The notes beneath the pieces were generated by a model. That model had not been told where the DNA came from and searched no databases. It worked only from the letters and a program-made list of their open reading frames with translations. From Minisyncoccota bacterium (GTDB lineage Bacteria > Patescibacteriota > Minisyncoccia > Phycocordibacterales > UBA9973), in NCBI GenBank assembly GCA_025453495.1, contig JALOQM010000004.1, positions 28,990 to 92,989 of the forward strand: a stretch of 64,000 nucleotides of DNA, given 5' to 3'. Each line of letters opens with the position of its first letter. The stretch's first letter is position 1. Below are positions 1,861 through 63,434 of the stretch, piece by piece. Made by a program: the position numbers and the translations under genes.

Positions 1861-2253
1861 ATGGAATCAATCATATCTTCAAACATACCTCTTCTCCTCC
1901 AGCTCATCATAGCAATCGGTCTTATAAATGTATGGGTACTTCGGGTACACCGTCCGACTATATATCGTGGTGGTAATGCAAAAAATATGATTGAAGAGTT
2001 TGCAGTATATGGACTCCCTACATGGATGCTCTATGTAGTAGGTGCTACAAAAATCACTATTGCGCTACTTATGATCGTAGGAATCTGGTATCAGACAGTG
2101 GTCATACCTGGAGCAGCAGTACTTGGACTTCTTATGATTGGTGCAGTAGCATTTCATGTAAAAGTCCATGACAAGATGATAAAAATAATTCCTGCGCTTT
2201 CTATCCTTGTTCTTGCAGTGGCAGTACTAGGTGCTACCCTTTTTATGCCGTAG
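1861..2253 (+). CDS. DoxX-like family small membrane protein
   Basis: 130 aa, four predicted hydrophobic helices, RGGNAKNMIEEFAVYGLP motif resembling the DoxX-like family. The overlapping 1743-1976 ORF was judged less likely. Confidence 0.5.
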   Translation: MESIISSNIPLLLQLIIAIGLINVWVLRVHRPTIYRGGNAKNMIEEFAVYGLPTWMLYVVGATKITIALLMIVGIWYQTVVIPGAAVLGLLMIGAVAFHVKVHDKMIKIIPALSILVLAVAVLGATLFMP

Positions 2254-2349
2254 CGCGATAAGTACTAACTAGAGAGACATTCAATCAAAAAAAATACTAT
2301 GAAGAGTGCCTAGGTGGTCATGCTAGTACAAAAAACATAGTAAAAATAC

Positions 2350-2790
2350 TTATATATCTTTTACTCTCGTAGTGTGGCACTTCTCGCACTTACACCCTTT
2401 TGGCTTGATGTATTCTTTCCAAAATTCGCGACCATAATCATAGGTGATTTCAGTTCCCGCTGGAATCCTACGCTTAGAAAATATCCAGACTCTTTTTTTG
2501 TAGATGGTTGGTTCACTGTTACCACAACACGAGTGGTTGATGTACCGTGCAGTATTGGAACGTGCCTTACCATCAATTGTAATCTTCGCAGTTACTTCAA
2601 ATAGATACTGGCTTGTGATCGTATATTCTTCTTTTTCCGAAAGCTTCCTGCCTACATACTCGATAATACACGCACGGGCAGGTATATCTTGCGCAGCAAA
2701 AAGACCGAGGCCAGCACTTGAGCGCTTCACAGTATAAAAATTTCGATTAAGTGGGATATATGTTCGTCTTTTGGTCATACAGAATGTCAT
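2350..2790 (-). CDS. SET-domain protein (putative protein-lysine N-methyltransferase)
   Basis: 146 aa. GLGLFAAQDIPARACIIEYVG, ARYINHSCCGNSE (the NHSC-x-N SET signature), GTEITYDYG and a C-terminal Cys cluster CKCEKCH (post-SET-like). No signal peptide. Confidence 0.8.
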   Translation of the reverse strand: MTFCMTKRRTYIPLNRNFYTVKRSSAGLGLFAAQDIPARACIIEYVGRKLSEKEEYTITSQYLFEVTAKITIDGKARSNTARYINHSCCGNSEPTIYKKRVWIFSKRRIPAGTEITYDYGREFWKEYIKPKGCKCEKCHTTRVKDI

Positions 2791-2819
2791 TATACGTTTT
2801 TTATTGATAATATAAAAAT

Positions 2820-3446
2820 ATGTTTGGCCTAATGAAACAAGAAATCAAAATACTTAAAAAGTTACGTACACCGATACAGATTCAGGAATACCTTGATACA
2901 GTTCCTATAAACTTTGAGGAGCACAGAGAGACATATATGTCTGTGCGGCGGACACTACAAGAGAAAAAGATGCACTGTCTTGAAGGTGCACTTGTCGCAG
3001 CTACCGCACTCTGGCTACAGGGGCAAAAGCCACTTCTACTTGATCTCAAGGCCGACGGTGATGACGATCATGTCGTCGTGCTCTATCGGACAAATGGCTA
3101 CTTTGGAGCGATTAGTAAGACGAATCATGCAACACTACGCTTCCGTGATCCTATCTACAAGACACTTCGCGAACTTGCCCTCTCCTACTTCCATGAATAT
3201 ACCCATACAAAAAATGGCAAAAAGTGTCTACGCTCGTATTCCACTCGACCGTTTGATCTACGAACACTCGGACATGACTGGATCACGAGTGATGAAGATT
3301 TATACTACATCGCACAAGCAATTGATGATGCATCACATACAAGACTCTTTCCAAAACAGCAAGAGAAATATTTACGTAAAGCAGACCAGATGGAACGACG
3401 CGCGAACGCACTAACTGAGTGGCGTACATCTCGACGACGTGCCTAA
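2820..3446 (+). CDS. Hypothetical protein with papain-like (peptidase C39-like) Cys/His signature
   Basis: 208 aa. HCLEGALVAATALW (catalytic-Cys-like context) and DDDHVVVLY (His context resembling the C39 HFVVL motif). Divergent from the SET gene with only 29 bp between start codons. Confidence 0.4.
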   Translation: MFGLMKQEIKILKKLRTPIQIQEYLDTVPINFEEHRETYMSVRRTLQEKKMHCLEGALVAATALWLQGQKPLLLDLKADGDDDHVVVLYRTNGYFGAISKTNHATLRFRDPIYKTLRELALSYFHEYTHTKNGKKCLRSYSTRPFDLRTLGHDWITSDEDLYYIAQAIDDASHTRLFPKQQEKYLRKADQMERRANALTEWRTSRRRA

Positions 3447-3498
3447 ATGCAAAAAACCTGACCAGGATACGATCCTAATCAGGTTTTGTATGTAAGAG

Positions 3499-4092
3499 TT
3501 ATTTTCCACTTAGGGGTATGCCAAAGACTACTCCGATTTCCAGTGCCCAAGAGGGGATGACGGGAGAATTTTTAATCCAAAGGAGATTCAATCCCCCACG
3601 AAAGGTCCCACCAATCCAATAGTCATTGTTAACAATCCCACCACAGTTAAGCTGCAAAAAAAGTTTGCCTGTGCTTCCTGTGCCTAATTCACGTGCACTA
3701 GGAAAGGAAGGTCCATAGCCGAAACCAACAACTGATCCGGCAAAACTAATTTTACTTTGGTTTCTAGAACCACCTTCAAAAGGCACTCCGAATCCAACAA
3801 GAAAAAGAGTTGCCGGAGTATTTACCGGGAGCCGATAGGTCGTGTCATAGAGGCGAAAATGTTGACCGCCATTATGCTCAAGACCAATCCTTAAATAATC
3901 ACCAGCTAAACCAAAAGTAACTGCACCACCAATAATTGGGCTGTACGGAAATGCCAGAGGTCCTGACTGATCGACACTCATACCGGTAAATATCGTAGTG
4001 AATACTGTACTTTGCGCTTTGGTCTGCATCGGCGCTACTGCCATACCCATCATCCAGATGGCAACAATGGCTAAAAGGTTTGTTTTTTTCAT
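3499..4092 (-). CDS. Secreted glycine-rich hypothetical protein
   Basis: 197 aa. N-terminal signal peptide MKKTNLLAIVAIWMMGMAVAPMQTKA, Gly/aromatic-rich body. Confidence 0.5.
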   Translation of the reverse strand: MKKTNLLAIVAIWMMGMAVAPMQTKAQSTVFTTIFTGMSVDQSGPLAFPYSPIIGGAVTFGLAGDYLRIGLEHNGGQHFRLYDTTYRLPVNTPATLFLVGFGVPFEGGSRNQSKISFAGSVVGFGYGPSFPSARELGTGSTGKLFLQLNCGGIVNNDYWIGGTFRGGLNLLWIKNSPVIPSWALEIGVVFGIPLSGK

Positions 4093-4249: not shown

Positions 4250-6004
4250 TTATTGCTTACACACAAGCTCATTTATCTTTTTTGTTGTTGTGATATAGAC
4301 ATACCCTGTGCCTTCATTGAGCCCCCAAGAGCTAAGCACATCGGCTGTGTATGCTTCTTGAAAACGCTTGACTGCGGCATCAGTTGCAAGACCAAAGAAC
4401 CCTGTTGGTTGTATTGATAAGAAAGAATTTTTTAGCAAGAAGCTCTGTAACTTTGTAACCTCTGGACCTCTCGAACCAAGCCTCATATATGAAGTAAGAT
4501 ATGGTGCGCATGTATCTTGAGGTTCCACATATCCTGGAAGCTCTTTCGGATTTGTCGTAAATCCGCCAGCACCAGTATCAATCGGTGGAGGGGCTATACC
4601 AGTATCAGTTGGAGGTGTGACTAATGCTGGAGCAGATACTCCCTGTGCCATCGAGTCGCTATCTGCAGTAAAGCGAATTGTTTCTGAATTTGTGCCAGAA
4701 AGTCTGTAACCGATACCGGCAACAGTCAATGCGCCGTTAAGCATTTCGCCTTCACGAAGCGCGAGACCGACAAGCGAACCTGGACCATCTTCTCCAATTA
4801 CGACATCATTCATAAAATCGACATCAGTAATGACATAGTCAGTCACTCCAATAGTATTTGTTTTAACCGCTTTTACGACACCTTGTGTTGCACAAGCAGT
4901 TCCACTAACACAGCCCGAGGGACTAGTCGTCCATACAAGTGTATCAGCGACAACATCAGCCACAATTGACGGTGAAGCAACATAATCTAAATTTCCACCA
5001 TTTACACCACAAGTATGTACAGCTCGTAGAGTAAATGATTCATGGTCAGTGGTCGCATTATAAGATGCAAATGCAGGAGAAAAATCAATAACGCCATTAT
5101 CTGCTCTTACCTGAAAACTATTAGGTATAGTGGTAGCACCGCAATGGCTTGGAGAAATAGAGCCGAATTGCAGACTACCAGGAGAGCTACCATCAAGAAC
5201 AAGAGATACGACATCTGAATGATATCTTGTCGCGATATTTCCAAAACTATCATAAGCAGTAACCACGGGCTGTGTAGTCCACACCACACCACTTTGCACA
5301 TCACCATAAACTGGAGTCGGTGTCATGCTTGGTAGTGTAGTGAAACTAAGAGTTACTGCTTGACCTGGAATAATCGTAAAGGCATTATCGATAGCCTTAC
5401 CTGTAGAACCTCCACCCTTACCTGTTGCTGAATCATCAGATACAAATAATTCTTGCCCGATTATCCAAAGCTGAAGATTTCCGTCTTGTGAAGTAAAGCC
5501 ATCACCATCAAAAACAGCAGCAGTTTCAGGGTTGAAAATTATATTAAGAATACTAAAAGAAATTGTGTCTGAAACATCAACAGTACTTCCGTAATTAAAT
5601 GGAGCGGCAAGAGTGAGTTGTATTCTTGTACCTACAACTTCAACCAAAGAAACTTCTCGATCAGTACCATTTATAGAAATAAAACCACCTGAACCAATAT
5701 CTGATTGCACCACTTCTGTTGGATCAGCAATAAATGAACCATCAAGAGTAAATATATTTGGAAAATTAACAATAATCTTGGATGCTGTTCCAGTACTTGT
5801 TGTCGTATAAGATACTTCGTATTGCCCCGGTTCACCGACAATATCATCAGTACCAAGAGTTACTGGAGCGACTGTAGCAGTAGTTATTGATGCTTGCACC
5901 GAGTTCCGCCACACAAATCCACCCACAACAAGAGCAGTGATAATACCTACAATAGTGAGGGTATACACATTGTTGGAAATTTTTTTCTTGAGTATATTCA
6001 ACAT
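4250..6004 (-). CDS. Membrane-anchored cell-surface protein with C-terminal peptidoglycan-binding (PG_binding_1-like) domain
   Basis: 584 aa. N-terminal signal anchor, long Thr/Ser/Gly/Val-rich beta-type body. C-terminus LGSRGPEVTKLQSFLL...GFFGLATDAAVKRFQ matches the PG_binding_1 motif pattern. A terminator hairpin follows at 4195-4228. Confidence 0.6.
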   Translation of the reverse strand: MLNILKKKISNNVYTLTIVGIITALVVGGFVWRNSVQASITTATVAPVTLGTDDIVGEPGQYEVSYTTTSTGTASKIIVNFPNIFTLDGSFIADPTEVVQSDIGSGGFISINGTDREVSLVEVVGTRIQLTLAAPFNYGSTVDVSDTISFSILNIIFNPETAAVFDGDGFTSQDGNLQLWIIGQELFVSDDSATGKGGGSTGKAIDNAFTIIPGQAVTLSFTTLPSMTPTPVYGDVQSGVVWTTQPVVTAYDSFGNIATRYHSDVVSLVLDGSSPGSLQFGSISPSHCGATTIPNSFQVRADNGVIDFSPAFASYNATTDHESFTLRAVHTCGVNGGNLDYVASPSIVADVVADTLVWTTSPSGCVSGTACATQGVVKAVKTNTIGVTDYVITDVDFMNDVVIGEDGPGSLVGLALREGEMLNGALTVAGIGYRLSGTNSETIRFTADSDSMAQGVSAPALVTPPTDTGIAPPPIDTGAGGFTTNPKELPGYVEPQDTCAPYLTSYMRLGSRGPEVTKLQSFLLKNSFLSIQPTGFFGLATDAAVKRFQEAYTADVLSSWGLNEGTGYVYITTTKKINELVCKQ

Positions 6005-6146
6005 GATATTTTTTACTTTATGTTTTACTTATGAGTTATACTCAATATACTAGCATATGCTAATGAAAAGCGCATTTGTACAATACGTAGTATATATTCC
6101 GTACAAAAGGCGTATTTTAGTAGCATACAATACTGTATACTAGACA

Positions 6147-6542
6147 TTGCATAGAATTTCGGGGCATATTCTACGCATAAGTCTTGCGATTACCTTTATT
6201 TGGATTGCTAGTGTGATACTCAAATACCCAGAAGTCTGGGGTGAATATCTCAAGCCTTGGGCAATCGATCTCCCTCCCGCCTCCGTCGAAGCAACCATGC
6301 GTGCGACAGATATTGCTGATATCGTAATCGGCTTCTTGTTTCTTGTGCCGAGCATAGCGTGGGTTGCTGGTATTCTCGGTGTACTCCATATGCTTCTGGT
6401 TCTTGTGACATCGGGCATAACTGATATGACCGTAAGCAACATTGGACTACTTGGCGCGTCGGCTGCCATAGTCCTTGATTCACTTTCTTTTTTTATTCGA
6501 AAACGGCATAGTAGTAAAACTACTGCGACCCCCACCACATAA
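6147..6542 (+). CDS. Hypothetical small membrane protein
   Basis: 131 aa, three hydrophobic helices. Preferred over the antisense 6140-6577 ORF on hydrophobicity pattern only. Confidence 0.3.
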   Translation: MHRISGHILRISLAITFIWIASVILKYPEVWGEYLKPWAIDLPPASVEATMRATDIADIVIGFLFLVPSIAWVAGILGVLHMLLVLVTSGITDMTVSNIGLLGASAAIVLDSLSFFIRKRHSSKTTATPTT

Positions 6543-6554
6543 ACGACACACGTC

Positions 6555-7253
6555 ATGCGCTTACATCGATTTTTCACTACTACTGATATTGGAAATGTTC
6601 ACGCGGGTATGGTAGTTACTATTTCAGATCCACACATCACGCACCAGCTTAGTAAAGTACTTCGAGCAAAAATAGGAGACCCAGTCGCATTTTTTGATGG
6701 ACAAGGTATAGCGATAAATGGCGACATAGTGGAGCTACAAAAAAACACAATTACTCTCTTGGTAAAAGAGCAAAAAAAGCATCAAAGACCAAAAAAAATA
6801 ACAATACTCTATCTTGCTATGCTCAAGCGCGAGAACTTCGAGCTTGCCGTACAAAAAGCAACTGAGATAGGCATCAGTGCGATTGTCCCACTTCTCACAG
6901 AGCGAACCATAAAGACAGGTTTCAACCGTACACGTATTGAGAAAATCATAATCGAAGCTGCTGAGCAATCTGGGAGAGTATTTGTCCCAACACTCTACGA
7001 ACCAAAGTCATTTATTCAAGCTTGTAAAGAAATACAAACCCTTAAATTATTTCTCGATTTCGATGGGACTCATTTTGAGAATGTGCTAAAAAAAACAAAA
7101 GACACAGTAGCTCTTTATGTCGGGCCTGAAGGTGGATGGACAGATACTGAACGAGCACTTGCAAAAGAAGCGGGCTGTATCGCAACAACGCTTGGCACAC
7201 TAACCCTACGTGCAGAAACTGCGGCAATCGTCGGAAGTTATCTAATCATATAA
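6555..7253 (+). CDS. rsmE: 16S rRNA (uracil1498-N3)-methyltransferase RsmE
   Basis: 232 aa. N-terminal PUA-like region (HRFF...), C-terminal SPOUT motifs LYVGPEGGWTDTE and TLGTLTLRAETAAI. Confidence 0.9.
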   Translation: MRLHRFFTTTDIGNVHAGMVVTISDPHITHQLSKVLRAKIGDPVAFFDGQGIAINGDIVELQKNTITLLVKEQKKHQRPKKITILYLAMLKRENFELAVQKATEIGISAIVPLLTERTIKTGFNRTRIEKIIIEAAEQSGRVFVPTLYEPKSFIQACKEIQTLKLFLDFDGTHFENVLKKTKDTVALYVGPEGGWTDTERALAKEAGCIATTLGTLTLRAETAAIVGSYLII

Positions 7254-19164: not shown

Positions 19165-19590
19165 GTTTTGAGCCAGATAGTTGCTCTTTGATGTATATCA
19201 AAGAGAGGAAAGTCCGAACACATAACGATTCAATTCGTATAGGTAATGGGTAATTCCCATACGGAGCAATCCGCGAGGTGCGAGCAGAGACGCTTGCAAG
19301 CGAAAGTGCGCAAGCGTCCCGACTTCGGTCGGGACGAGTTCTCAAGGTAACTTGAGAGGTGAAACGGCTAAATCCTTACCCGTGTGCAAGGCCGTGTTCC
19401 CCACTACTTTAAACAGTTATATGAATACTCTATGTAGTAATGAAATAAAAATTATCGCATACGCATACTCACATAAGTTTTTAAAGTAGTGGGGAAAGTG
19501 CCGCTTGAGGCCGACGGCAACGTCGGTCCCAGATAAATGACTATCGTCTGGGTAACCAGATACAGAATTCGGCTTATAGGCTCAAAACTA
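19165..19590 (+). ncRNA. rnpB: RNase P RNA (bacterial type A-like)
   Basis: Universally conserved GGAAAGTCCGAACAC near the 5' end and ACAGAATTCGGCTTATAG near the 3' end. P1 pairing gttttgagcc (19165-19174) with ggctcaaaac (19579-19588). Contains an AT-rich extended hairpin insertion (ccccactacttta...taaagtagtgggg, about 19377-19500). Terminator hairpin at 19596-19626. Confidence 0.85.
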
Positions 19591-19595
19591 ACATG

Positions 19596-32055: not shown

Positions 32056-32154
32056 AGCGGGGAGTATAGCGTATTTAGCTAAAAAATACAAGATTCTAAT
32101 AGAATTCTCCAAACTAAAGAACTACTAGTCTTTCAAATGCTTTTTTTATTTTTG

Positions 32155-32227
32155 AGCCAATGGTCGGGATTGAACCGACGGCCCCCGCTTTACGAAAGCG
32201 GTGCTCTACCAACTGAGCTACATTGGC
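32155..32227 (-). tRNA. tRNA-Thr (anticodon CGT)
   Basis: Cloverleaf folded by hand: acceptor GCCAATG/CATTGGC, D-arm GCTC-AGTTGGTA-GAGC, anticodon stem CCGCT/AGCGG with loop TTCGTAA, T-arm GTCGG-TTCAATC-CCGAC. No encoded CCA. Confidence 0.85.
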
Positions 32228-36666: not shown

Positions 36667-36759
36667 AGAAAATTCTACAAATGTATTCCATATACTGTAA
36701 CAGAAACGATATGTCAGTGAAAGCTACACTTCAGGAATTAGGTATAGTCTCCCTTCGGG

Positions 36760-36832
36760 AGCCAATGACCGGGATTGAACCGGTGACCTCGCCCTTACCA
36801 TGGGCGTGCTCTACCAACTGAGCTACATTGGC
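36760..36832 (-). tRNA. tRNA-Thr (anticodon GGT)
   Basis: Hand fold: acceptor GCCAATG/CATTGGC, anticodon stem CGCCC/GGGCG with loop ATGGTAA, T-arm ACCGG-TTCAATC-CCGGT. Shares its 5' half with the tRNA-Thr(CGT) at 32155-32227. Confidence 0.85.
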
Positions 36833-40037: not shown

Positions 40038-40042
40038 CTTTG

Positions 40043-40116
40043 CGCGAGTGATGGGACTTGAACCCACGACCTTCCGCGTGACAGGCGGACGCTCTAACCA
40101 GCTGAGCTACACCCGC
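40043..40116 (-). tRNA. tRNA-Asp (anticodon GTC)
   Basis: Hand fold: acceptor GCGGGTG/CACTCGC, anticodon loop CTGTCAC, T-arm GTGGG-TTCAAGT-CCCAT, discriminator G. Confidence 0.85.
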
Positions 40117-40174
40117 AATTCTGGTTACTTTTCGAACATAGGCACTGTAGCAATTTTCGCGCCCATATTCAATG

Positions 40175-40248
40175 TGTCGGCGGGTGGAATCGAACCACCG
40201 ACCTTGGGCTTATGAGTCCCACGCTCTAACCGACTGAGCTACGCCGAC
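40175..40248 (-). tRNA. tRNA-Met (anticodon CAT), elongator type (G1-C72 paired)
   Basis: Hand fold: acceptor GTCGGCG/CGCCGAC, anticodon loop CTCATAA, T-arm GGTGG-TTCGATT-CCACC. Could alternatively be a lysidine-modified tRNA-Ile2. Confidence 0.75.
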
Positions 40249-40271
40249 ATATATGTATTTATCAAACCATG

Positions 40272-40343
40272 TTGCGGGGGCCGGATTCGAACCGACGATC
40301 TCAAGGTTATGAGCCTTGCGAGATACCACTTCTCCACCCCGCG
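40272..40343 (-). tRNA. Initiator tRNA-fMet (anticodon CAT)
   Basis: Acceptor CGCGGGG...CCCCGCA A with the C1:A72 mismatch diagnostic of bacterial initiator tRNA. T-arm GTCGGTTCGAATCCGGC almost identical to E. coli tRNA-fMet. Confidence 0.85.
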
Positions 40344-62273: not shown

Positions 62274-63434
62274 ATGCCAAAACTCAATCCAGAAATTGAA
62301 TCGTTCGCACGTATCAAGGTCATCGGCGTCGGCGGCTCGGGGAAAAACGCTCTCAATCACATGATCAACTCCAAAGTCAAAGGTGTTGAATTCATCGTCA
62401 TGAATACCGATACACAAGACCTTCACAATTCCCTCGCTCAGAAAAAAATCCATCTCGGCAAAAATCTTACCCGCGGTCTCGGTACAGGCATGAATCCAGA
62501 AACAGGACGCAAGGCAGCAGAAGAGACAAAGGCTGAAGTACAAGATGCAATCAAAGGAGCAGATATGGTCTTCATCGCATGTGGTATGGGTGGTGGTACA
62601 GGCACTGGCGCAGCACCGATTGTTGCGCACGCAGCAAAAGAGCAAGGTATCCTCACCGTAGCAGTCACGACAAAGCCGTTCTTTTTTGAAGGAAATGCTC
62701 GTATGCAACTTGCTGAGCGAGGTCTTGCTGAGCTCTCAAAAGAAGTCGACGCTATTATCGTCATTCCAAACGATCGCATGATCGCAGTTGCCGGAAAAGA
62801 CACCAATCTCAAAAACGCTTTTGCTATGTGTGACGATGTCCTCCGTCAGGCTGTCGAAGGCATCTCAGATCTCATCACGACACCTGGTATCATCAACGTT
62901 GACTTCGCTGACATCAAAGCGATCATGTCAGATGCGGGGTCAGCGCTCATGGGCATCGGCTCTGCGACTGGTGAAGGCCGTGCAGAAAAAGCAGCAGTCC
63001 AAGCAATCAATTCTCCACTCCTTGAACTCTCAATCAATGGCGCAAAAGGAGTACTCTTTGCAATCTCTGGTGGTGACGACATCACCATGCACGAAGTGCA
63101 GGAAGCGGCACGTATCATCACAGAGTCTATTGATAGAGATGCCAAAGTGATTTTCGGTACTATTAAAGACGACCGCCTTAAAAAGGGTGAACTGAAGGTC
63201 ACCGTTATCGCGACTGGCTTCCCAACCAACGCCGAGAAGAAGACACTCTTCTCCCCTGTTGTAGAAAATAGTACTCAACAAAAAGAAGAGAAACGAGAAA
63301 TACACAATGCGATGGTGCAGCCTGAAATAAAGAAGGAAGTAAAAAAGATAGAAGTTGAAGAGCTTGTACTCGAAGACGATACCGATGAAGACTGGGGGGC
63401 TGTACCAGCATTCCTAAGACGCGGCAAGAAATAA
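62274..63434 (+). CDS. ftsZ: Cell division protein FtsZ
   Basis: 386 aa. Tubulin signature GGGTGTGAAP, GVGGSGKNALN, T7 loop NVDFADI. Confidence 0.95.
   Translation: MPKLNPEIESFARIKVIGVGGSGKNALNHMINSKVKGVEFIVMNTDTQDLHNSLAQKKIHLGKNLTRGLGTGMNPETGRKAAEETKAEVQDAIKGADMVFIACGMGGGTGTGAAPIVAHAAKEQGILTVAVTTKPFFFEGNARMQLAERGLAELSKEVDAIIVIPNDRMIAVAGKDTNLKNAFAMCDDVLRQAVEGISDLITTPGIINVDFADIKAIMSDAGSALMGIGSATGEGRAEKAAVQAINSPLLELSINGAKGVLFAISGGDDITMHEVQEAARIITESIDRDAKVIFGTIKDDRLKKGELKVTVIATGFPTNAEKKTLFSPVVENSTQQKEEKREIHNAMVQPEIKKEVKKIEVEELVLEDDTDEDWGAVPAFLRRGKK

Follow-up and report, generated by a model that had tools for sequence, protein, structure and literature searches.

The best described relative of the larger of the two proteins considered here is CPR-C4, a vasohibin-like cysteine protease of the transglutaminase fold, with a triad made up of a Cys, a His and the backbone carbonyl of a Leu (Cornish et al., J Biol Chem 2022, PMC9108980). 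Protease activity and a homodimeric state are established for this protein, a member of the 'CP01A' subfamily that is 48% identical to ours; the pocket seen in its crystal structure carries a positive charge, pointing to an acidic substrate, and the tri-aspartate Zn site of CPR-C4 was stated not to be obligatory for the family (PMC9108980). CPR-C4 is among the most conserved of the CPR-enriched proteins, and its structure and generic protease activity are already published; the position of its gene, however, was judged by the authors to offer no functional clue (PMC9108980). The smaller protein carries a SET domain. Described SET proteins include Go1-SET of Methanosarcina mazei, which methylates MC1-alpha, and the bacterial effectors NUE of Chlamydia, RomA/LegAS4 of Legionella and BaSET of Bacillus anthracis (PMC3980110). 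A limited literature search found no work linking SET domains to CPR-C4 or to CPR bacteria, an absence that is not proof; the linkage described below appears to be new to the literature, whereas both of its components were already known. Whereas the crystallised CPR-C4 comes from a thermophilic Adlerbacteria-like contig, with ABC-transporter genes on its flanks (PMC9108980), the gene studied here, as in about a quarter of the species sampled, is paired with a gene for a SET methyltransferase.

The pair lies in a window of 64,000 nucleotides from a Minisyncoccota bacterium (contig JALOQM010000004.1), that is, a CPR bacterium, ultra-small and with a reduced genome; the homolog search places the organism in the CPR, in agreement with a preliminary description of the window, which had proposed a reduced-genome bacterium. 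Both ORFs are present where that description had put them, and the gap of 29 bp that it gave holds for the longest ORFs (Table 1); all of the motifs quoted from them were found: RYINHSCCGNSE, EITYDYG and CKCEKC in the SET ORF, and the contexts of a Cys (HCLEGALVAATAL) and of a His (DDDHVVVLY) in the 208-aa ORF. Homology indicates that both are real genes, because searches returned over 7,700 homologs of the 208-aa protein and over 3,000 of the SET protein, and because the alignments are conserved (mean column identity of 62-64% in 30-sequence alignments of each protein, about 64% for CPR-C4). Translation of the SET gene probably starts at the second ATG, since this agrees with the conserved N-termini in the 30-homolog alignment and with the gene calls in the closest relatives, of 138 and 136 aa, with spacers of 41 and 39 bp. 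An N-terminal MFGL is conserved in the 208-aa protein and backs position 2820 as its start. The NCBI call (204 aa) and the JGI call for the SET gene (126 aa) look too short.

Table 1. Features of the SET/CPR-C4 locus (positions refer to the window).
Feature	Position	Strand	Details
Gene for a predicted stand-alone SET + post-SET protein lysine methyltransferase	2350..2790	-	longest ORF 146 aa; probable start ATG 2778 (M5), giving 142 aa
Gene for a predicted CPR-C4-family cysteine protease (vasohibin-like, transglutaminase fold)	2820..3446	+	208 aa
Putative shared divergent control region, AT-rich	2779..2819		41 bp; 29 bp (2791-2819) between the longest ORFs
Promoter-like site for the SET gene, TTTATA-16-TATAAT	2789..2816	-	consensus scan, 10/12 matches
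Promoter-like site for the CPR-C4 gene, ATGTCA-16-GATAAT	2784..2811	+	consensus scan, 9/12 matches
Hairpin, 16-bp stem between A/T runs	3453..3487		terminator-like scan

A phmmer search of the PDB with the 208-aa protein returned CPR-C4 (7OB6/7OB7/7PJO) with E=1.4e-54 and 188 bits, query residues 5-203 aligning with chain residues 24-228. The AF2 model (pLDDT 90.8) has as its first Foldseek match 7ob6_B (E=2.3e-23, TM 0.90, rmsd 1.5 Å, 48% identity), followed by VASH1/2, LapG and transglutaminases; over the CPR-C4 structures as a group, identity is 47-48% across about 205 residues and TM 0.88-0.90. Like CPR-C4, the protein has a single domain of about 208 aa, is encoded by a CPR bacterium, and keeps the triad, the nearby Ser and all three of the Zn-binding Asp residues (PMC9108980). 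Residues C53, H84, S99, D75, D83 and D169 are invariant in 30 homologs, and position 106 is Leu in 26 of these and Val in the remaining four; C53/H84/L106/S99/D75/D83/D169 map to C61/H93/L115/S108/D83/D92/D182 of the crystal structure (PMC9108980). The alignment thus predicts a catalytic triad of C53, H84 and the backbone carbonyl of L106, with S99 nearby, and a tri-Asp metal site formed by D75, D83 and D169. The second ORF had been proposed to be a Cys/His peptidase with a transglutaminase- or papain-like fold, and the PDB match, the alignment and the model bear this out, with the Cys and the His singled out at the time occupying the catalytic positions. In place of the Asp of the Cys-His-Asp triad then envisaged, the predicted third member is the backbone carbonyl of a Leu, with a Ser close by, and D83, the Asp adjacent to the His, is a Zn ligand in the crystal structure.

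The label of C39-type peptidase did not survive. A bacteriocin-leader peptidase of this type, or a part of a defence or mobile-element module, would share with the 208-aa protein the order Cys...His and a papain-like superfold. However, Pfam gave no match at E<=1 to C39, BtrH or any other peptidase family apart from a sub-threshold vasohibin match, the window holds no ABC exporter fused or adjacent to the gene, no C39 structure is among the top 50 structural matches listed, and the fold agrees with those of CPR-C4, vasohibin and LapG. The Pfam, PDB phmmer and Foldseek results effectively refute the C39 reading. A phage or mobile origin was likewise rejected, PADLOC giving 0 matches and PHROG nothing meaningful, CPR-C4 relatives being absent from the viral contigs of IMG/VR, and the GC content matching that of the surroundings; we give this whole class of explanations practically no credence. 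As to the vasohibins, the Pfam match (PF14822) stays below the cut-off of 24 bits, with a score of 12.8 (E=0.073, residues 83-130 only), and vasohibins appear in the PDB phmmer search at E of about 0.4-0.6. Human VASH1 and VASH2, which are tubulin detyrosinases, have in common with the 208-aa protein a cysteine protease core of the transglutaminase-like kind (Foldseek E of about 5e-6), an unusual triad geometry that is predicted to be alike, and some faint sequence similarity near the His strand; at 12-18% identity and TM 0.42-0.49, the similarity is real but remote. In addition, CPR-C4 differs from them in having no SVBP-binding helices, in being a homodimer and in the opposite charge of its substrate pocket (PMC9108980). 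The protein is predicted to be vasohibin-like in mechanism yet lies outside PF14822.

The SET domain call stands firmly: PF00856 is matched with 72.9 bits (cut-off 22.4; E=3.2e-20) over profile positions 1-105 of 105, and a phmmer search of the PDB gives the SET domain of MLL4/KMT2D with E=1.6e-16. The SAM-binding and catalytic motifs G27-L28-G29, N85-H86 and Y117-D118-Y119 are invariant in 30 homologs, and S87 and C88 nearly so. Also invariant is the post-SET cluster C133/C135/C138 (CxCxxC), which with C88 forms a predicted zinc cluster; a check of the SAM pocket, suggested in the preliminary description, thus finds both pocket and post-SET residues conserved. In the AF2 model (pLDDT 70.7, with a poor region at residues 59-81), the nearest structures are the SET domains of MLL4, MLL1, MLL3, G9a and vSET (E of about 1e-7 to 1e-8, TM of about 0.6), and MLL4, MLL3, MLL1, G9a/GLP and vSET are the best matches by sequence and structure together. 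The C-terminal tails of the 30 homologs are basic and unconserved. We conclude that the gene encodes a stand-alone SET/post-SET protein with predicted lysine methyltransferase activity, and we regard the identities of the two proteins, taken by themselves, as close to certain. With about 140 aa and little beyond the SET core and the post-SET Cys cluster, the protein resembles Go1-SET and vSET; it differs from Go1-SET, vSET, MLL and G9a in its CxCxxC post-SET spacing and in having neither pre-SET nor partner-binding regions, and linkage to a protease gene is a feature that we have not seen described for any of them. By analogy, the nearest functional precedent may be an action like that of Go1-SET on a protein of the cell itself, chromatin-like or other (PMC3980110). 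Members of the family, about 50% identical, are also found in high-GC loci, probably of non-CPR origin. In those loci, neighbouring ORFs resemble, by eye, rpiA and glmU.

SET domains had been called uncommon in bacteria and often effectors in the preliminary description; on the contrary, environmental CPR bacteria hold thousands of members of this small SET family. CPR bacteria are episymbionts, a lifestyle that would suit a secreted pair in which the SET enzyme acts on host histones or nucleoid proteins and the peptidase on host proteins, and some bacterial SET proteins, namely NUE, RomA/LegAS4 and BaSET, are indeed effectors (PMC3980110). The likeness to these is confined to the SET catalytic core; the secretion signals of the effectors and their additional domains (ankyrin repeats, for example) are both missing from the SET protein of the window. 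Its best NCBIfam match is the model of the Dot/Icm effector AnkI/LegAS4 (NF043024), but the match scores 38 bits where 550 are required, and it extends over the SET core only; membership was rejected. Read by eye, neither of the two N-termini has a hydrophobic signal-like stretch, and the few neighbours examined included no recognisable secretion-system gene. Moreover, the same SET family is present in the high-GC, probably non-CPR contigs, and CPR-C4, being found very widely and in highly conserved form (more than 7,700 clusters; mean column identity of about 64%), has a profile typical of housekeeping enzymes and not of effectors. We therefore set aside the host-targeting module proposed earlier and consider a secreted effector pair very unlikely.

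To assess linkage, 80 CPR-C4 loci were sampled from one-genome-per-species contigs and a SET homolog was scored within 6 kb. Such a homolog was found in 21 of the 80 species-level loci, against a chance expectation of about 1/80, assuming one randomly placed SET gene per genome of about 1 Mb; co-conservation of the two genes, a check suggested in the preliminary description, is thus positive in a substantial subset of relatives. Twelve of the linked loci are immediate head-to-head arrangements (gaps of 39-225 bp), eight have the SET gene in tandem, downstream of CPR-C4 on the same strand, and in one the SET gene is 4 kb away. SET is the commonest family neighbouring CPR-C4 (19-21 loci; the next family, 10 loci) as well as its commonest immediate neighbour, and in metagenome loci seeded with SET the commonest genuine neighbour is CPR-C4; of the 17 SET-seeded loci that could be assessed in the two SET clades with the bulk of the linked members, 11 show the linkage. 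SETs linked to CPR-C4 are spread over three distinct SET clades, one of them being an isolated case from Moranbacteria (L064), and the CPR-C4 tree requires at least eight changes of linkage state, the trees being neighbour-joining trees of short proteins and ORF calling at the loci being crude. The association is facultative, partial and structured by clade.

This distribution has to be weighed against the possibility that the two are functionally independent housekeeping genes, adjacent through inherited synteny in compact genomes; an overlapping divergent promoter in a 40-bp spacer might itself prolong adjacency by leaving few viable breakpoints. Most CPR-C4 genes are indeed without an adjacent SET gene (59 of the 80 loci have none within 6 kb), and several SET loci of the linked clade (L081, L083, L087, L120 and L130) have no CPR-C4 gene within 5 kb. 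Linked loci cluster by clade on both trees; the tandem group shares a wider synteny, with several other neighbours in common, so that its linkage may reflect descent only, and neighbour families that resemble plain synteny reach 9-10 of the 80 loci. In seven of the tandem loci a gene on the opposite strand lies between SET and CPR-C4, and the two therefore do not form one operon there; in one clade, a gene for a CofE-like gamma-glutamyl ligase lies between them. A search for fusions was negative: with a concatenated query against 5.8 billion proteins, the best 120 matches were all single-domain proteins of about 208 aa. The CPR-C4 authors, for their part, saw no informative neighbourhood (PMC9108980). 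Against synteny alone stand the excess over a randomly placed gene, the position of SET and CPR-C4 as each other's top neighbour, the occurrence of two gene orders, and the spread over three separate SET clades, with the isolated L064 among the cases. At the head-to-head loci the flanking genes on the far sides vary from locus to locus and are wholly replaced, whereas the pair is kept across 50-65% protein identity; in close relatives, the spacer of 39-41 bp is kept while the genes upstream of SET differ. On balance, we regard synteny alone as possible but doubtful; were it correct, the locus would hold just two ordinary members of known families.

We favour a functional link, in which two protein-modifying enzymes, apparently cytoplasmic, would be transcribed outward from an AT-rich control region of about 41 bp. 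The SET/post-SET enzyme would methylate the epsilon-amine of a protein lysine, with S-adenosylmethionine as the donor; in CPR-C4, Cys53 would be activated by His84, itself oriented by the backbone carbonyl of Leu106 and/or by Ser99. The two activities, methylation and specific proteolytic trimming or processing, would fall on the same endogenous protein or proteins, in one pathway; we infer co-regulation, a shared substrate and a cytoplasmic location, and we propose a shared pathway because the two genes are found paired repeatedly, in several lineages and in either of two orders, whereas the outer flanks of the head-to-head loci turn over. The explanation as a whole, with a co-regulated cytoplasmic modification pair at its centre, is one that we think could go either way; it counts against it that the analysis yielded no candidate for the substrate. 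The same adjacency data would also fit an arrangement in which one enzyme targets the other, SET controlling CPR-C4 by methylating it (for example at K50, K100 or K135), or CPR-C4 processing SET. CPR-C4 does have invariant lysines, including K100 beside the active-site Ser99, but K50, K100 and K135 are equally invariant where no SET gene is adjacent; and the pocket of CPR-C4, with its positive charge (PMC9108980), would face SET tails that are basic as well as unconserved. Mutual targeting thus seems unlikely to us.

The functional link, if true, would add a protein-modification pathway to organisms known mostly from their genomes. The pairing is the first neighbourhood clue to the target of the CPR-C4 family and, being recurrent, narrows the search for both enzymes to a protein that carries methyl-lysine and also undergoes specific cleavage. 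Eukaryotic tubulin is detyrosinated by vasohibins, methylated by SETD2 and polyglutamylated. By analogy, CPR-C4 and SET, maybe with the CofE-like ligase in one clade, could form a toolkit that writes and trims marks on the tail of an abundant acidic protein, for instance one of the cytoskeleton, the ribosome or the nucleoid; it would be a mechanistic analogue, and possibly an evolutionary relative, of the eukaryotic system. We know of no tubulin substrate in bacteria. The FtsZ encoded in the window (62274-63434) ends in the usual basic tail, VPAFLRRGKK, and a scan of the window ORFs for acidic tails returned a single one, which has no terminal aromatic residue; the tubulin analogy is thus unsupported, and we consider such a tail code a long shot.

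In the spacer, a consensus scan found the only two sigma-70-like matches of the interval 2200-3600, back to back and overlapping; these are consensus matches only and are no more numerous than expected from shuffled sequence. The -10 box of the SET site lies partly on the first ATG of the long ORF, and 10 nt separate its end from the M5 ATG that follows. The -10 box of the CPR-C4 site ends 8 nt ahead of the ATG at 2820, and the CPR-C4 mRNA would therefore be leaderless or nearly so. Inspection of 16 head-to-head spacers revealed no common operator motif, only -10-like boxes and clade-specific similarities; the spacers are likewise short (39-75 bp) in most head-to-head relatives. Downstream, the hairpin sits between the CPR-C4 stop codon and a convergent gene (3499-4092), and is likely to be a bidirectional terminator that closes the unit.

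The two ORFs of the divergent pair lie where a preliminary description of the region had placed them, with 29 bp between them, and every motif quoted there was found in an ORF check of the window. Judged by sequence, both are real, conserved genes; mean column identity is 62-64% in alignments of 30 homologs of each product. The N-terminus MFGL, conserved in the alignment, favours 2820 as the start of the 208-aa protein, and SET probably starts at its second ATG (M5, at 2778), since homolog N-termini align from this residue, giving a 41-bp spacer. Gene calls in the two nearest relatives point the same way, with SET lengths of 138 and 136 aa and spacer lengths of 41 and 39 bp. Public gene calls begin at other codons (window 2778-2790 and 2820-2831), with 204 aa for the larger protein at NCBI and 126 aa for SET at JGI; the conserved homolog N-termini indicate 208 and 142 aa as the probable lengths. 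In the window the pair stands alone as a divergent unit with the GC content of its surroundings, and no relatives were found on viral contigs. A consensus scan of 2200-3600 returned only two sigma-70-like matches, a count not higher than expected from shuffling; both are in the spacer, overlapping and back to back, and their -10 boxes, which are consensus matches, end 8 nt short of the ATG of the 208-aa gene and 10 nt short of SET's M5 ATG. Boxes so close to both ATGs suggest that the two mRNAs would have very short leaders or none, with room for co-regulation. The product of the gene beyond the hairpin (3499-4092) is 197 aa long, has a signal-like N-terminus and no family match, and is kept in the closest relatives (199 aa in locus L164, 197 aa in L165); the adjacent gene at 4250-6004 (minus strand) encodes 584 aa, with a hydrophobic segment at the N-terminus and a PG_binding_1 domain at the C-terminus.

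Features of the window, and CofE-like genes at related loci (L handles denote loci from other genomes or metagenomes)
Feature	Coordinates	Strand	Remarks
DoxX-like gene	1861-2253		convergent with SET; neighbour on SET side
SET gene	2350..2790	minus	longest ORF 146 aa; probable start 2778, 142 aa
CPR-C4 homolog gene	2820..3446	plus	208 aa; start 2820
Hairpin	3453-3487		16-bp stem; between CPR-C4 homolog gene and convergent gene
Gene convergent to CPR-C4 homolog	3499-4092	minus	beyond hairpin
RNase P RNA, class A	19165-19592	plus	148.8 bits
Five tRNA genes	32154-32227, 36758-36832, 40042-40343	minus	two are adjacent tRNA-Met
ftsZ-like ORF	62274-63434	plus	tubulin signature; C-terminus VPAFLRRGKK
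CofE-like gene between the pair	L062:6624-7346	minus	L046, L047, L062, L068, L076, L116, L140; Pfam F420_ligase E=6.5e-9
CofE-like gene next to SET	L145:4886-5599, L103:3-296		two further loci

The assignment of the smaller protein to the SET family holds (Pfam SET, 72.9 bits; cut-off 22.4). The closest solved sequences in a PDB search are the SET domains of MLL4, MLL3, G9a/GLP, ASH1L and SETD2 (E 1e-16 to 1e-11), and the AF2 model, although moderate (pLDDT 70.7), still matches MLL, G9a and vSET structures. The cofactor and catalytic motifs (G27-L28-G29, N85-H86-S87-C88, Y117-D118-Y119) and the post-SET cysteines (C133, C135, C138) are invariant or nearly so among the aligned homologs. By the sequence and model searches run, the protein is a SET protein; it is basic (pI 9.6), scarcely larger than the catalytic core, and shows by eye no hydrophobic signal-peptide-like stretch at its N-terminus. 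About 3,000 homologous clusters were found at E<=1e-3, and all source-named entries among the best 120 listed come from Patescibacteria/CPR metagenome-assembled genomes.

The 208-aa protein had been described tentatively as a C39-type or transglutaminase-like cysteine peptidase, with a Cys-His-Asp triad to be confirmed in a structure model. Its Cys and His do form the predicted catalytic pair, in a transglutaminase/papain-like fold, but the family is CPR-C4, not C39. A PDB sequence search matched it almost over its full length to CPR-C4 (7OB6, 7OB7, 7PJO; E=1.4e-54), and its AF2 model (pLDDT 90.8) superposes on 7ob6_B with a TM score of 0.90, an rmsd of 1.5 A and 48% identity; the next matches, VASH1/VASH2 (E about 5e-6), come ahead of LapG and transglutaminases. 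According to Cornish et al. (J Biol Chem 2022; PMC9108980), CPR-C4 is a highly conserved, homodimeric CPR protein that cleaves labelled casein, with a non-canonical triad common to vasohibins (Cys61, His93 and the backbone carbonyl of Leu115, Ser108 nearby); three aspartates (D83/D92/D182) form its Zn site, and its pocket carries a positive charge. Mapped through the PDB-search alignment, the window equivalents are C53, H84, L106 and S99, and D75/D83/D169; all are invariant in the 30-homolog alignment except position 106, which is Leu in 26 sequences and Val in the remainder. The third element of the triad therefore aligns to Leu115 and is not the proposed Asp. By these sequence and model comparisons the protein is a member of the CPR-C4 family; we describe it as working like a vasohibin, yet it lies outside Pfam Vasohibin. 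The family tests for C39 and for Pfam Vasohibin both failed, and no significant model was found in Pfam, NCBIfam, PADLOC or PHROG; we give a C39 or defence reading practically no credence. More than 7,700 clusters are homologous to the protein (E<=1e-3); the source-named ones among the best 120 listed are all from Patescibacteria/CPR metagenome-assembled genomes, and 'Candidatus Pacebacteria bacterium' has an identical annotated protein.

Each gene thus belongs to a known family. The apparent novelty is their neighbourhood, which gives a small but practical pointer to the substrates of both families. Only the linkage goes beyond what has been published: the CPR-C4 gene was reported to appear unrelated to its neighbours (PMC9108980), and no earlier report of the neighbourhood was found in the limited literature searched. 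With the window SET protein we searched 80 CPR-C4 loci, drawn from a collection holding one genome per species and retained as those most similar to the query; ORF calling in the loci was crude and the trees are rough. The co-conservation proposed as a check in the preliminary description was observed, a SET homolog lying within 6 kb of CPR-C4 in 21/80 loci: immediately head-to-head as in the window in 12 (39-225 bp between alignments), downstream on the same strand in eight, and 4 kb away in one. No SET was found within 6 kb in the other 59. Unsupervised ORF clustering made SET the commonest neighbour family (19 loci, the next reaching 10) and also the commonest immediate neighbour. Conversely, CPR-C4 is the commonest genuine neighbour family in 80 SET-seeded metagenome loci, 12 of which carry it within 5 kb.

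Linkage is restricted to particular clades of the SET tree. In the window-SET and tandem clades, 11 of the 17 SET-seeded loci with sufficient flank are linked, and some SET genes of the linked clade lack a CPR-C4 gene within 5 kb; the remaining clades are never linked, apart from an isolated third case in Moranbacteria (L064), where CPR-C4 is followed after ~100 bp by a same-strand SET of a different clade. On the CPR-C4 neighbour-joining tree, linked loci fall into several groups, requiring at least eight state changes. Past SET, the genes differ in every head-to-head locus, and past CPR-C4 they mostly differ; the window's closest relatives keep the pair and its ~40-bp spacer with changed genes upstream of SET. 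The tandem clade has wider synteny (a conserved ORF without Pfam match, CPR-C4, SET, a PAP2-like gene), with an opposite-strand CofE-like gene between the pair in 7/12 loci, so that simple descent explains its linkage. Neighbour families resembling plain synteny reach 9-10/80 loci, and no SET-CPR-C4 fusion was found in a search built to rank fusions at the top. Given the unlinked loci, the synteny, the lack of fusions and the sampling, we put a functional link at an even chance or slightly better; that independent genes were kept adjacent by descent is a serious alternative, with perhaps one chance in three.

The reading with most support is that of two cytoplasmic enzymes forming a protein-modification pair, in which SET would methylate a lysine with SAM and the CPR-C4 homolog would cut a peptide bond through Cys53 and His84, its substrate probably being acidic by analogy with the pocket of the crystallised homolog. 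That the linkage recurs points to a shared target or pathway; that one enzyme acts on the other is improbable. The host-targeting effector pair proposed earlier is more doubtful still: the proteins show by eye no signal-like N-terminus, they have no effector-type architecture, no secretion gene was recognised among the neighbours examined, and the LegAS4 equivalog gave 38 of 550 bits.

CPR bacteria are not known to make F420, and a gamma-glutamyl-ligase-like enzyme next to a putative acidic-substrate peptidase is therefore suggestive; the CofE-like gene is confined to one clade and absent from the window. A parallel with the eukaryotic tubulin code (vasohibin, SETD2 and glutamylation, taking in the CofE-like gene of one clade) is a remote possibility that has no positive support: the window FtsZ has an ordinary C-terminus.

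Among the SET-seeded loci, small SET proteins ~50% identical to the window's lie on contigs of 61-66% GC (L104, L107, L126, L129, L137 and others), one of them 1.65 Mb long and all probably not CPR; they form one of the unlinked clades, adjoin ORFs resembling rpiA and glmU by eye, and have no CPR-C4 nearby. In a Kaiserbacteria chromosome (OY969413.1; L070:5956-6627) two ORFs, 5956-6282 and 6337-6627, together make up the CPR-C4 homolog, and an intact SET (6664-7107) comes directly after them; the split reflects either a frameshift pseudogene or an assembly error. The 191-bp head-to-head spacer L022:1110-1300 includes an inverted repeat, long and near-perfect (...TGTGTCATCCCGGCGGAGGCCGGGATCCAG...CTGGATCCCGGCCTCCGCCGGGATGACACT...), that resembles a small palindromic insertion into the control region shared by the pair. 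At L001:6600-7025, the last ~25 nt of the CPR-C4 gene are shared with an ORF that, judged by eye from its GGQ motif, resembles an RF-1/ArfB-type peptidyl-tRNA hydrolase domain; the family of this ORF occurs in 6/80 CPR-C4 loci and is a possible operon partner of CPR-C4 in a clade without SET linkage.
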